Source of the DNA: Escherichia phage SkaterBoy_Bas90
Reading direction: 5' to 3' (one strand)
Sequence record: PQ850626.1
Length of the DNA: 64,000 bases
In this document: piece by piece, positions 53,651 to 56,078 of the stretch
Layout: each line of letters begins with the position of its first letter
Position numbering within the stretch: position 1 is the stretch's first letter
The notes under the pieces: model-generated
Database searches by the model: none
The model's input: only the letters and a program-made list of their open reading frames with translations
What the model was told of the DNA's origin: nothing
Position numbers and translations under genes: made by a program

Positions 53651-53849
53651 ATTATTTACCCTTTATCAGAGATTAAAAGTAATATTATTTAAGTAAGTTA
53701 TATTTAGTAAACTTATTTTCTAAGAAATTTTCAAAGGGTCTATATACAGAGCATTACCCATAGTCCCAGAATACTGCCATCTTTTTCAATAAATTTACTA
53801 AGTGGTTGGTTTATAAAGGAATTTAGTTTGTCAAATCTGGCACTAGTGA

Positions 53850-54239
53850 TTATTCCCTAGAGCTATTATCGAACACTAAATCACCACAATACATAGGATT
53901 GGCATACCATTTTGGCACCCCTTCGCTCTTACTCTGAAAGTAAGTCCCACTGTACAGCGGAACATAATTCTTCTTAAGGGCACGTTTAGCAAGTCGCTCG
54001 CTTTCTCCAATGGCTTGCTTAGTCATCGGATTTTTATCACGAATCAGCTTTACATAACGTTTATAAGGTTTCTCCTGTTTTAATAGTACCGGAATCCACT
54101 CAAACTGGTTCTTTTGTCTTATCACCTGTTCAGCGGTCAGTTTTCGTTGGGCCATTCTATTTATCACGGTATCCGCAACTAAAGCCTTACATGCGGTTGG
54201 CTGATTCCCTGCCTCATAATAAATAGTCAATGTCAACAT
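53850..54239 (-). CDS. cell-wall hydrolase (SleB/CwlJ-like), candidate endolysin
   Basis: TIYYEAGNQP ... ALVADTVINRM ... NQFEW pattern resembles the SleB/CwlJ hydrolase domain. Confidence 0.5.
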   Translation of the reverse strand: MLTLTIYYEAGNQPTACKALVADTVINRMAQRKLTAEQVIRQKNQFEWIPVLLKQEKPYKRYVKLIRDKNPMTKQAIGESERLAKRALKKNYVPLYSGTYFQSKSEGVPKWYANPMYCGDLVFDNSSRE

Positions 54240-54317
54240 TAGCTGTGCCGTTGTTATCAGAACTTGCTACCTCCTGTTTTGTTGTTTCAATAAACACCCT
54301 CGAAAAGATGCTTATAG

Positions 54318-54345
54318 AAACACCCCTCCCTTTCGGGAGAGGCAC
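54318..54345 (-). terminator. rho-independent terminator downstream of the collagen-like gene
   Basis: On the - strand CCTCTCCCGAAAGGGAGGGG hairpin followed by a T-rich run. Confidence 0.45.
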
Positions 54346-54349
54346 TATC

Positions 54350-55138
54350 TTACCACTCGTAACTTACACCAGCGCCCAGAACAGCGTCACTCTCTGAAGT
54401 CATTGCCACTGATGCTTTAGTTACTACGTTTTCATTGAAACGAGCACTAACACCAATAGCAAGAGCAGATTCACCATCGTAAGCACCTACCCCAGCACCA
54501 ACAGAGAAAGCAGATCCTTGACTTACTTGCGGGATGTTAGCCATTGCAGCCACGCCAGAAATACCAGCAGAGGCATGATCACGGTTACGGTCTATTTGTT
54601 TTTGCAAAGAAGCAAAACGTTTATTGGTGGATTGTTCCAGAGCTTTGATGGATTTGGCGTTAGCATTAACGGCAGACATATCTGCATCTTTACCATTTTT
54701 GCCATTTAATCCGTCAACGCCATTCAAACCTGCTGCACCAGTTAGGCCAGTTTCGCCTTTCTTACCATCTGCACCAGAATCACCTTTTTCACCTTGAGCG
54801 CCTTGTTCTCCATCAATTCCATCTTTACCATCAATGCCATCTTTACCATCAATGCCATCTTTACCATCAATGCCATCTTTACCATCAATGCCATCTTTAC
54901 CATCAATGCCATCTTTACCATCAATGCCATCTTTACCATCAATGCCATTAGCGCCAGTGTCGCCTTTCTCTCCCTGATCACCTTTTTCACCTTTAAACCA
55001 ATCTCCGATACCGCAACCATTGGTAGATTGACCTACACCACAACCTCCATTGCCATTGCCATTGTTTCCACTTTTAGCAATAACAGGCGATGCCATTACG
55101 GACAGAGCTAGGATTGAGGATAATACAATTGCTTTCAT
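54350..55138 (-). CDS. secreted collagen-repeat protein with a YadA-like (trimeric autotransporter) C-terminal anchor
   Basis: From ATG 55138: signal peptide MKAIVLSSILALSVMASPVIA; (GIDGKD)n collagen-type Gly-X-Y repeats; C-terminus ...AIGVSARFNENVVTKASVAMTSESDAVLGAGVSYEW resembles the YadA-type beta-barrel anchor. Confidence 0.55.
   Translation of the reverse strand: MKAIVLSSILALSVMASPVIAKSGNNGNGNGGCGVGQSTNGCGIGDWFKGEKGDQGEKGDTGANGIDGKDGIDGKDGIDGKDGIDGKDGIDGKDGIDGKDGIDGKDGIDGEQGAQGEKGDSGADGKKGETGLTGAAGLNGVDGLNGKNGKDADMSAVNANAKSIKALEQSTNKRFASLQKQIDRNRDHASAGISGVAAMANIPQVSQGSAFSVGAGVGAYDGESALAIGVSARFNENVVTKASVAMTSESDAVLGAGVSYEW
54819..54946. repeat. 18-bp perfect tandem repeat, about 7 copies (CATCTTTACCATCAATGC), encoding the GIDGKD collagen-like repeats
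   Basis: Directly visible in the sequence; lies inside the CDS 54350..55138. Confidence 0.9.
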
Positions 55139-55149
55139 TTCATAGATTC

Positions 55150-55182
55150 CTATACAGTAGACATAAAAAAGCCCCAGCCGTA
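55150..55182 (-). terminator. rho-independent terminator upstream of the collagen-like gene
   Basis: On the - strand GC-rich hairpin (CCCCGGCTACGGCTGGGG) followed by CTTTTTTATG. Confidence 0.5.
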
Positions 55183-55249
55183 GCCGGGGCAAACCTGAAA
55201 GCAACACATGACCGTTGCTATAAATACACTCGCAAATGCACTTACAGCA

Positions 55250-55282
55250 ACGCAAAAAGCCGCTCAAAGGCGGCTATGCGGA
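55250..55282 (-). terminator. second tandem rho-independent terminator
   Basis: On the - strand ATAGCCGCCTTTGAGCGGCTTTTTGCG. Confidence 0.5.
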
Positions 55283-55355
55283 AGCTTCAAATGGGGAGAG
55301 GGCACGACGCTACAGAAAGAGCGTCACAGTACTAAAAGAGGGGGCTATATTCCTA

Positions 55356-55799
55356 CTACTTAACCCTTGCCTCTTTGATGGGGTCAATGTATTTCTCAAC
55401 GCCCCACTTGTGTTTACTATCTGCGTAGAAAACATCAGGTGCACACTGGCTTGTCTTAGGGAAAGCCTGCGGGTCTTTCGTGCTACCTTTAAACTTCTGT
55501 TTACCACGGGTGCGACCATTACAGAAGATTTCTAACTTCTTCTCCTCTTCTGTTTTAGCTCCCCCGCTCTGTAACAAAGAACGTTTATGATCAGCTAACA
55601 ACAACGCATCAGCCCGATGGACACGATGGCCTACACGCTTTGCAACACTGGAAGGAACATGGGATTCAGCCTCAGCCTTTGCAGCACGACGTTTTAAACT
55701 ACGCTTACTAATGTGATTAGTTGCCTTCGGTTTCTCTTTCTCCAGTTCAGAGATAGAAAAACAACGCCCGCCCTTCATGCTGATTTTAGATTTAGCCAC
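55356..55799 (-). CDS. hypothetical basic protein
   Basis: 147-aa Lys/Arg/His-rich ORF. Confidence 0.35.
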   Translation of the reverse strand: MAKSKISMKGGRCFSISELEKEKPKATNHISKRSLKRRAAKAEAESHVPSSVAKRVGHRVHRADALLLADHKRSLLQSGGAKTEEEKKLEIFCNGRTRGKQKFKGSTKDPQAFPKTSQCAPDVFYADSKHKWGVEKYIDPIKEARVK

Positions 55800-55868
55800 A
55801 ATCTTATTCCTTTTAGTGATAAGTTATATCGGGCAAGCCCATCAAGGCGATAGGCTTGAACAAATAAC

Positions 55869-56078
55869 TTAATCAAGTAAACTAAACGATTTCCAACTAC
55901 GTAGAAGGATTGTACCGTCATCCATAGTTACACATAATTTTAGTAGTTTCTTATTGGCACTACTCACCGTTGTAATTCGTCCGGTTGTACATTTACCTTT
56001 ATTGCTATAAAGATACACTACACGACGGCCTAACAGACGAGAGGGAGCTTTCTTAAACTCTGAAATGTTAGTGATCAT
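55869..56078 (-). CDS. hypothetical protein
   Basis: 69-aa ORF. Confidence 0.3.
   Translation of the reverse strand: MITNISEFKKAPSRLLGRRVVYLYSNKGKCTTGRITTVSSANKKLLKLCVTMDDGTILLRSWKSFSLLD

Follow-up and report, generated by a model that had tools for sequence, protein, structure and literature searches.

A collagen-stalked protein with a YadA-type anchor encoded in the early region of Escherichia phage SkaterBoy_Bas90: a putative trimeric autotransporter as accessory gene of Kuraviruses

Gene and protein anatomy

The DNA analysed in this study is a stretch of 64,000 nucleotides of Escherichia phage SkaterBoy_Bas90 (PQ850626.1; hereafter referred to as the window), which carries on its minus strand a gene for a collagen-stalk protein with a C-terminal membrane anchor of the YadA type. 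The identity of this region to Escherichia phages of the genus Kuravirus (phiEco32-like, Gordonclarkvirinae) amounts to 97-99%. In phage phiEco32 the orthologous gene is phi32_119 (ABY52920.1), which was annotated as 'agglutinating adhesin' in the GenBank entry EU330206 from 2008. A preliminary description of the locus, made from the sequence alone, had proposed a terminator-insulated gene for a secreted collagen-repeat protein with an outer-membrane anchor at positions 54350-55282.

The minus-strand gene was confirmed as real, with a coding sequence (CDS; 55138..54350) that comprises 262 codons and a stop codon. The longest mechanically predicted open reading frame (ORF; 54350..55267, minus strand) begins with TTG, and this TTG extension spans both hairpins upstream of the gene. 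The ATG at position 55138, which has an AGGA nine nucleotides upstream, is the credible start codon. The end coordinate 55282 of the preliminary description takes in the two upstream hairpins, and no coding sequence is located there. All features of the locus are listed in Table 1.

The N-terminus (MKAIVLSSILALSVMASPVIA|KS) possesses a lysine at position 2 and a hydrophobic core with Kyte-Doolittle values of up to 2.56 over 11 amino acids, and V-I-A at positions -3 to -1 of the likely cleavage site corresponds to the V-x-A pattern. The signal peptide, which had already been recognized in the preliminary description, was assessed by rule-based features only. It is followed by a small tip with a pair of cysteines and by a proline-free run of Gly-X-Y triplets, which would be about 29 nm long if it formed a triple helix (calculated with 0.286 nm per residue, i.e. 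1.7 nm per 18-bp unit). Within this run, the claimed GIDGKD triplets were found as seven perfect GGCATTGATGGTAAAGAT units. Tandem Repeats Finder reported the 18-bp unit with 7.7 copies at positions 54810-54948 (99% matches, score 271), and the array is far beyond chance.

Table 1. Features of the collagen-stalk gene and its surroundings (positions in the window).
Feature	Position	Strand	Basis or remarks
CDS for the collagen-stalk protein with YadA anchor (262 aa + stop), orthologue of phiEco32 phi32_119	54350..55138	-	
Predicted Sec-type signal peptide MKAIVLSSILALSVMASPVIA, codons 1-21, probable cleavage before KSG	55076..55138	-	hydrophobicity, -3/-1 rule
Gly/Asn-rich tip of ~28 aa, codons 22-49, Cys pair C33/C42	54992..55075	-	most variable part
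34 unbroken Gly-X-Y triplets, codons 50-151	54686..54991	-	proline-free, Asp/Lys-rich
Seven perfect 18-bp units GGCATTGATGGTAAAGAT (GIDGKD), then one degenerate unit (GIDGEQ)	54821..54946	-	
Conserved GKDADM junction, then ~50-aa alpha-helix, codons 152-202	54533..54685	-	AlphaFold2, conserved columns, alignment to YadA/Hia helix
YadA-type membrane anchor, codons 203-262, four beta-strands, C-terminus ...GAGVSYEW	54353..54532	-	PF03895, PDB sequence matches, Foldseek
23-nt leader, AGGA (55151-55148) nine nt before ATG	55139..55161	-	
GAAA-loop hairpin, 8 nt past the stop codon, weak U tract; cassette part shared with the HTH cargo	54325..54342	-	hairpin 54342-54325, -18.4 kcal/mol, z = -3.5 vs shuffled
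Terminator T2 (phage backbone), 8-bp GC-rich stem, 4-nt loop, U6	55161..55190	-	hairpin 55190-55171, -18.6 kcal/mol, z = -3.6 vs shuffled, UUUUUU after
Terminator T1 (phage backbone), 6-bp stem, then U5	55248..55275	-	hairpin 55275-55258, -15.4 kcal/mol, z = -2.8 vs shuffled, UUUUU after
Whole presence/absence cassette (leader + CDS + downstream hairpin)	54281..55161	-	exactly missing in SU10 and Paul

Domain assignment and fold

Two Pfam families were matched clearly above their gathering scores. YadA_anchor (PF03895; 4.4e-19, 68.7 bits vs 22.7) was covered from profile position 1 to 60 of 60 by amino acids 203-262 at the extreme C-terminus, and Collagen (PF01391; 6.8e-17, 61.4 bits vs 27.2) was assigned to the triplet run, which is unbroken from amino acid 50 to 151. 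In a sequence search of the PDB, the C-terminal 90 residues aligned end to end, including the last residue, with the anchors of YadA (2lme, 4.5e-9), Hia (2gr7, 3emo, 2gr8) and, more weakly, AtaA (9vnj).

An AlphaFold2 monomer was built from an alignment of 59 sequences and was confident for amino acids 150-262 only. It comprises a helix at residues 150-200 (predicted local distance difference test, pLDDT, 62-88) and four strands at residues 211-220, 223-233, 238-247 and 252-260 (pLDDT 75-89). When this model was compared to the PDB with Foldseek, the five best matches were all anchors of trimeric autotransporter adhesins (TAAs), i.e. Hia (3emo, 2gr7, 2gr8), AtaA (9vnj) and YadA (2lme), with E-values from 3.6e-8 to 1.8e-4 and TM scores on the target of 0.69-0.88. 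The sixth match had an E-value of 0.07, and nothing else in the PDB was significant. The collagen part is covered poorly in the monomer (pLDDT <50) and is uninformative there, as expected of one chain.

The protein therefore combines the features by which TAAs are recognized: the complete anchor profile at the extreme C-terminus, a pore helix with four strands, a Sec-type N-terminus (rule-based) and a C-terminal aromatic residue, which is the beta-signal for the beta-barrel assembly machinery (BAM); the window protein ends in ...VSYEW and 2lme in ...NIEW. The helix of codons 152-202 would be the coiled-coil stalk together with the pore-filling helix. Collagen and coiled coil, the putative motifs of the passenger, are intrinsically trimeric, and their presence would be consistent with a homotrimer. 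Because the tests by Pfam, PDB sequence search, AlphaFold2 and Foldseek agree, the reading of the protein in the preliminary description is correct, including its assignment of the ...GAGVSYEW terminus to a YadA-type anchor, for which a profile search had been suggested as a check.

The NCBIfam models for YadA, BimA, Scl1/Scl2 and Lcl gave partial matches far below the family cut-offs, and equivalence to these named proteins was dropped for this reason. Membership in a defence system was rejected as well, since PADLOC gave no match to a defence system.

The gene as exchangeable cargo

The genomic slot was analysed by pairwise BLAST of window positions 53800-55900 against ten relatives and by direct inspection. 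Phages SU10 and Paul lack exactly the cassette consisting of leader, CDS and downstream hairpin; T1 and T2 are kept at 97% identity, and in both phages T2 directly adjoins the sequence that precedes gene 117. Of the 99 Kuravirus records with matches to the flanks, about 14 carry the adhesin (≥95% protein identity). The gene resembles a moron in being present in some and absent from other relatives that are otherwise collinear, and in every complete carrier the ORF is intact.

Phages 172-1 and SGF2 carry another gene between the same leader (CTAYTGTATAGGAAT) and downstream hairpin, and its product is an XRE-type helix-turn-helix (HTH) protein of 105 amino acids (PHROG 2339, 5e-28). This gene is located at L009 2054-2371 in 172-1 and at about L008 2073-2366 in SGF2, and the window equivalents are 54350-54371 and 55133-55161. 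The HTH protein of 172-1 ends with ...GDGVSYK*, a relic of ...GAGVSYEW* of the adhesin. Therefore, the HTH gene replaced an adhesin gene by recombination at its extreme ends, and the swap point in 172-1 lies inside the last codons of the adhesin.

An origin of the cassette in E. coli or its prophages was rejected, because a blastn search of 5,426 complete E. coli genomes, which covers matches of roughly 65-70% identity or better, gave none. The composition likewise gave no sign of a recent foreign origin, which was rejected on this basis (GC content 0.44 for the cassette vs 0.42 for the window).

The next gene downstream (53850-54239, minus strand, 129 aa) is a homologue of phi32_117 and encodes a SleB-type cell-wall hydrolase (Hydrolase_2, 1.7e-7). 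Its product shows a weak match to an endolysin PHROG and is without an obvious signal peptide. The gene belongs to the early region, and the strong AGGAGG ahead of it is located about 25 nucleotides before the ATG, which is unusually far. This neighbourhood might suggest an accessory function in lysis or envelope remodelling, in which the barrel weakens the outer membrane in concert with the adjacent hydrolase. Such a function is very unlikely, as gene 117 is a backbone gene that occurs irrespective of the adhesin. Furthermore, TAA barrels are closed by their own helices, the gene is positioned in the early cluster, and the protein has no similarity to spanins or disruptins.

Two further details of the slot were observed. 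A second small indel site lies upstream of T1 (window 55348-55360), where the window is devoid of a 174-nt ORF that Paul (L002 3657-3830) and KM01 (L006 2835-3008) carry between the homologue of gene 120 and the terminators. The annotated 'gp118' (window 54214-54345) is probably no gene, since the cassette boundary runs through it and part of it coincides with the downstream hairpin.

Repeat and tip polymorphism

Perfect tandem repeats had been expected to vary in copy number, and comparison of related phages, which had also been proposed as a check, bore this out. Among near-identical orthologues, the number of GIDGKD units ranges from 0 to at least 9 and always remains in frame, since every length difference between orthologues is a multiple of 18 bp. 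No unit is present in KM01, which has a further in-frame deletion, and one unit was found in EK5, two in phiEco32, four in phiEc_1, five in Ec3-ASingh and seven in the window. FS2B, MN03 and PGN6866 possess at least 5, at least 6 and at least 9 units, respectively. The shortest predicted stalk would thereby measure roughly 18 nm and the longest more than 30 nm.

These numbers have to be read with care. The records of FS2B (L011), MN03 (L012) and PGN6866 (L013) stop inside the 18-bp array, and because three public records end there, the array is evidently broken or collapsed in short-read assemblies and published copy numbers, including the seven in the window, are unreliable without long reads.

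The exposed end of the protein varies in a second way. EcP-vB (L007 2051-2827) and EcK-vB (L014) carry another N-terminal allele with a different signal peptide, a CSHSKQC tip and additional GxKGD/E triplets, and this allele joins an identical stalk base and anchor (window equivalent 54951-55119). The mosaic exchange is restricted to the exposed end of the protein. A metagenomic protein (P0001) combines a tip of the window type with triplets of the EcP-vB type.

Related proteins and their genomic context

When 5.8 billion proteins were searched, 3,113 matches reached E ≤1e-5, and the following counts refer to the best 120 of these. Collagen and YadA_anchor occur together in 119 homologues, and the remaining one contains Collagen only. 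Runs of 12-58 Gly-X-Y triplets were present in all 120 proteins, a C-terminal tryptophan in 118 and a signal-like N-terminus in 113. In addition, every homologue whose tip sequence was inspected has a cysteine pair (CX5-8C) near the tip. These features are in keeping with an exported protein and an oxidising destination.

Many of the best 120 homologues are encoded on contigs of phage size (45 kb or about 70-72 kb), and the same architecture was found in many virulent phages of Enterobacterales and Aeromonas. The preliminary description had regarded an outer-membrane fibre as unexpected in a lytic phage. This view does not hold, given these phages and the fact that such genes were annotated or discussed in 2008 (GenBank), 2013 (PMC3728262) and 2017 (PMC5449768). 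At the loci inspected, the context of the homologues is non-structural. In the N4-like Ithacavirus SP-058 the homologue follows the RNA polymerase genes and precedes the dUTPase gene, and on a 45-kb myovirus contig it follows DNA polymerase A.

Chromosomal relatives of anchor and stalk base share 53-66% identical amino acids from about residue 143 or 162 onward and were detected in Leclercia, Enterobacter, Scandinavium, Dryocola, Cedecea, Citrobacter, Kluyvera and Klebsiella. Such relatives are common in environmental Enterobacteriaceae (L020-L048), but the majority are devoid of a collagen run and mostly have coiled-coil passengers; exceptions with collagen include those of Ewingella (49 triplets) and Yersinia (9-13 triplets). 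One chromosomal collagen copy (L015 8001-9260; GCA_031975035.1) adjoins an arginine-deiminase/pyrBI region and has no phage genes in its vicinity.

The genomic context also bears on the question whether the protein is a component of the virion, i.e. a collagen-like tail fibre. Its best PHROG match is indeed phrog_26246, 'tail protein' (1.5e-108), followed by many weaker matches to collagen-type tail-fibre PHROGs; RefSeq uses 'tail protein' for the phiEco32 gene (NC_010324), and collagen repeats are common in phage fibres. Nevertheless, the weaker PHROG matches cover the low-complexity collagen part only, and the gene is absent from about 85% of the Kuraviruses. It lies in the early region and not in the structural module (PMC4281155), as is also the case in SP-058. 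Finally, the Sec signal and the complete barrel anchor are conserved and would take the protein out of the cytoplasm, where virions are assembled. A role as tail fibre is therefore highly improbable.

Transcription signals

The three hairpins claimed around the gene all exist and are more stable than shuffled sequences (z from -2.8 to -3.6). T2, which is annotated as a terminator in phage Paul, lies only 32 nucleotides ahead of the ATG. As SU10 and Paul keep T1 and T2 without the gene, these terminators are not the gene's own.

The leader contains TACTGTATA (55159-55151), a motif with one mismatch to the element tAATGTAtA of the phage sigma factor gp36 (PMC8948821), and this motif is kept ahead of the alternative HTH cargo. 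As evidence for a gp36 promoter of the gene's own, the motif was rejected for three reasons: such matches occur at chance frequency (20 found vs 19.8 expected), the mismatch affects a conserved position, and transcripts that start 6-8 nt downstream would have a leader of only 5-7 nt, which lacks the Shine-Dalgarno sequence. Given the conservation of the motif ahead of the HTH cargo, such a promoter retains a small probability. A scan for sigma-70-like promoters gave none on the minus strand between 57541 and 53711, and a sigma-70 promoter between T1 and T2 or past T2 was rejected accordingly. The gene thus does not show the own promoter and own terminator of an autonomous moron: a hairpin follows the gene, no sigma-70-like promoter precedes it, and the upstream terminators belong to the backbone. 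Of the independently transcribed moron put forward in the preliminary description, the accessory cargo remains and the independent transcription does not. The gene is an accessory, moron-like cargo without evident transcriptional autonomy.

Strong sigma-70-like promoters of the leftward early cluster are located at 61445-61418, 59110-59082 and 58477-58449 on the minus strand (11 of 12 positions each), and the gene lies within this cluster downstream of all three (61445, 59110 and 58477). The sites agree with the early promoters described for phiEco32 and SU10 (PMC4281155). A further terminator-like site was observed on the minus strand at 51674-51651.

Between these promoters and the gene, the hairpins 56603-56576, 55275-55258 and 55190-55171 intervene with no promoter-like site in between, and most relatives do without the gene. 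It might thus be a silent or nearly silent hitch-hiker that is hardly expressed behind three terminators and has no role in the lytic cycle. This is improbable, as the ORF is intact in all complete carriers, changes in the repeat are in frame, and the ribosome-binding site looks functional. Moreover, the anchor is strongly conserved and the tip diversified by allele exchange, and several virulent phage groups that are unrelated to each other share the architecture. In addition, the same terminators precede gene 117 and more than 40 other genes that were classed as early (PMC4281155), which makes read-through probable. We infer that transcripts from the strong early promoters pass leaky terminators and extend into the collagen-stalk gene; gene 117 and many early genes further downstream must also be expressed in this way. 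The presence of several good terminators ahead of dozens of early genes suggests graded read-through or a phage-directed antitermination in Kuraviruses.

Proposed destination and role of the protein

The reading that we prefer, with a probability of about 75%, is that this accessory gene of a virulent Kuravirus encodes a minimal trimeric autotransporter with a collagen passenger, which the infected cell displays on its surface and which is absent from virions. The domain identities, the anchor fold, the conservation of the export signal, the accessory status and non-structural position of the gene and its variable repeat number support it directly; trimerisation and display at the outer membrane are derived from these by inference.

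The export and assembly steps proposed here follow what is established for type Vc secretion. The preprotein would be exported by Sec and its signal peptide cleaved. Subsequently, the BAM of the host would assemble three C-terminal units of four strands each into one 12-strand barrel in the outer membrane, the three helices would occupy the pore, and the passengers would be threaded out with their C-terminal end first. The coiled coil may then nucleate the zipping of the 34-triplet collagen stalk of about 29 nm, to which each 18-bp unit would contribute 1.7 nm. As a result, the small tip, putatively looped by a disulfide, would be presented about 20-30 nm from the membrane. If export and barrel anchoring occur as proposed, the fibre would decorate the infected cell and not the virion.

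What such a fibre might do is less certain. A possible role, put forward tentatively and judged somewhat less than an even chance, is that of a surface coat on infected cells and debris, to which other phages or the phage's own progeny would then adsorb less. T5 Llp follows an analogous logic. Tip and stalk length would then be the evolving parts of the coat. Alternatively, the same outer-membrane fibre could be an agglutinin or adhesin, which clumps infected cells or sticks them to surfaces so that the progeny meet dense hosts. Autoagglutination is classic for YadA-type adhesins and is the source of the name 'agglutinating adhesin' in GenBank (PMC3728262), and a variable tip and stalk length would be expected of a ligand-binding adhesin. 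On the other hand, the tip is tiny (about 28 amino acids) and has no recognisable binding domain in Pfam, and the observed features suit a passive shield equally; we regard this role as rather unlikely. A steric or receptor-masking coat would rank first, followed in this order by aggregation or adhesion, silent cargo, help in lysis and a fibre of the virion.

Several points weigh against display of an autotransporter on the infected cell, or against the choice of a function for it. Exclusion, aggregation and other surface roles are not told apart by the present evidence. PHROG 26246 and RefSeq name the family 'tail protein'. Terminator-like hairpins (56603-56576, T1 and T2) are positioned between the early promoters and the gene, which has no recognisable promoter of its own. 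The AlphaFold2 monomer is uninformative for amino acids 1-152 (pLDDT <50). The searchable literature gave remarks in genome annotations and no experiment on any phage homologue with a YadA anchor.

Comparison with known systems

YadA of Yersinia, Hia of Haemophilus and AtaA of Acinetobacter share with the window protein the anchor of helix and four strands in sequence and fold, the terminal aromatic residue, the Sec signal and, as predicted, an obligately trimeric passenger. In contrast to these adhesins, the window protein has a proline-free collagen passenger and a tip of about 28 amino acids, and it has no beta-roll or Trp-ring head, no neck and no long coiled coil. It comprises only 262 amino acids and is carried by a virulent phage.

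Phage-encoded lipoproteins such as Llp of T5 and Cor of phi80 and N15 bind FhuA and block receptors. With these, the window protein would share a functional analogy only (early, exported, altering the surface), and it has no homology to them. Collagen-like stalks, in turn, are known from Scl1/Scl2 of Streptococcus and Lcl of Legionella, where a proline-poor or charged Gly-X-Y stalk presents a terminal domain and the repeat number is polymorphic. These proteins are anchored by LPXTG sortase or otherwise, whereas the window protein would be anchored by a type Vc barrel, and their partial NCBIfam matches (5e-15 to 6e-10, below the family cut-offs) are restricted to the repeats.

The immunoglobulin-binding Eib proteins of E. 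coli are TAAs from lambdoid prophages and are expressed by lysogens (PMC4352079). Like the proposed product of the window gene, they are phage-borne trimeric autotransporters on the outer membrane of the host. They differ in their large passengers of coiled coil and YadA-like head and in their ligand, immunoglobulin Fc; the window gene encodes a collagen passenger and belongs to a virulent phage.

Among phages, the 'agglutinating adhesins' of the Ithacaviruses FSL SP-058 and SP-076 share the signal peptide, the tip with the cysteine pair, collagen, the GKDADM junction and the anchor with the window protein (57-60% identity over amino acids 111-262), and they differ in larger tips (about 70 amino acids) and longer stalks. 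Further homologues are encoded by Serratia T4-like phage CBH8 (ORF145), GAP32 and Yersinia jumbo phages, and the phage homologues likewise occupy non-structural positions (PMC3728262, PMC5449768). In several more distant phage matches, only the anchor is conserved, from about amino acid 162 onward.

A relative already on record is gene 119 of phiEco32. It occupies the same slot between genes 120 and 117 and encodes the same signal peptide, tip, stalk and anchor as the window gene; outside the repeats and in the flanking sequences, about 98% of the nucleotides are identical. The numbers of GIDGKD units differ (2 in phiEco32, 7 in the window).

Prior record and annotation

The identification of the gene is already known and has been on record since the phiEco32 genome of 2008. 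Moreno Switt et al. (2013) named phiEco32 among the phages with a yadA homologue and stated that the yadA homologue of the Salmonella phages FSL SP-058 and SP-076 is not near the tail genes (PMC3728262). Chen et al. (2017) described a homologue in T4-like Serratia phages and gave its function as unknown (PMC5449768). Mildly new are the anatomy of the slot, the relic of the adhesin in phages with the HTH gene, the polymorphism of repeat and tip, and the finding that, within the YadA-anchor family, the phage-borne branch is characterized by the collagen passenger.

The labels of this family are inconsistent. Besides 'agglutinating adhesin', RefSeq uses 'tail protein' (NC_010324) and the EcP-vB record 'YadA-like protein'. 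The GenBank CDS of phiEco32 gp119 (L001 4551-5348) begins at an upstream TTG and runs across both terminators, and its 39 N-terminal amino acids are probably not real; the TTG extension corresponds to window positions 55139-55267. In phages free of the adhesin, ORFs of 44 and 75 amino acids between the homologues of genes 117 and 120, at the site of the T1-T2 spacer, are labelled 'recognition of host receptor' (L100, CHD5UKE1, 1258-1392; L101, pEC-N1203-2Af.1, 1571-1798). We suspect that this label was propagated from the false N-terminus of gp119. Both 'tail protein' and 'recognition of host receptor' look like annotation artefacts, which are worth correcting.

Implications

Interest in the locus is moderate to low unless a function as surface shield is demonstrated. 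Kuraviruses are used in cocktails for phage therapy, and a label such as 'adhesin' or 'virulence' raises regulatory flags. Moreover, the locus is a compact model, since it offers a protein of only 262 amino acids, 0 to at least 9 repeats and two tip alleles, as well as natural knock-outs in the form of the empty slot or the HTH replacement in otherwise near-identical phages. It raises the questions whether the type Vc pathway is able to export and fold a proline-free collagen, whether a stalk length set in steps of 18 bp has any effect, and why an outer-membrane fibre should be acquired again and again, and retained, by strictly lytic phages.

In a wider and more speculative view, which we consider doubtful but worth stating, virulent phages that infect Gram-negative bacteria and belong to several unrelated families would share a dedicated class of collagen-stalked mini-autotransporters, whose length is tuned by slippage of an 18-bp unit and whose tip is swapped by recombination. 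Placed in the outer membrane of the dying cell, they would form a steric coat against the adsorption of competitors or progeny to infected cells and debris. If this is true, these proteins would represent a new device for superinfection exclusion or progeny protection that is built on type Vc secretion.

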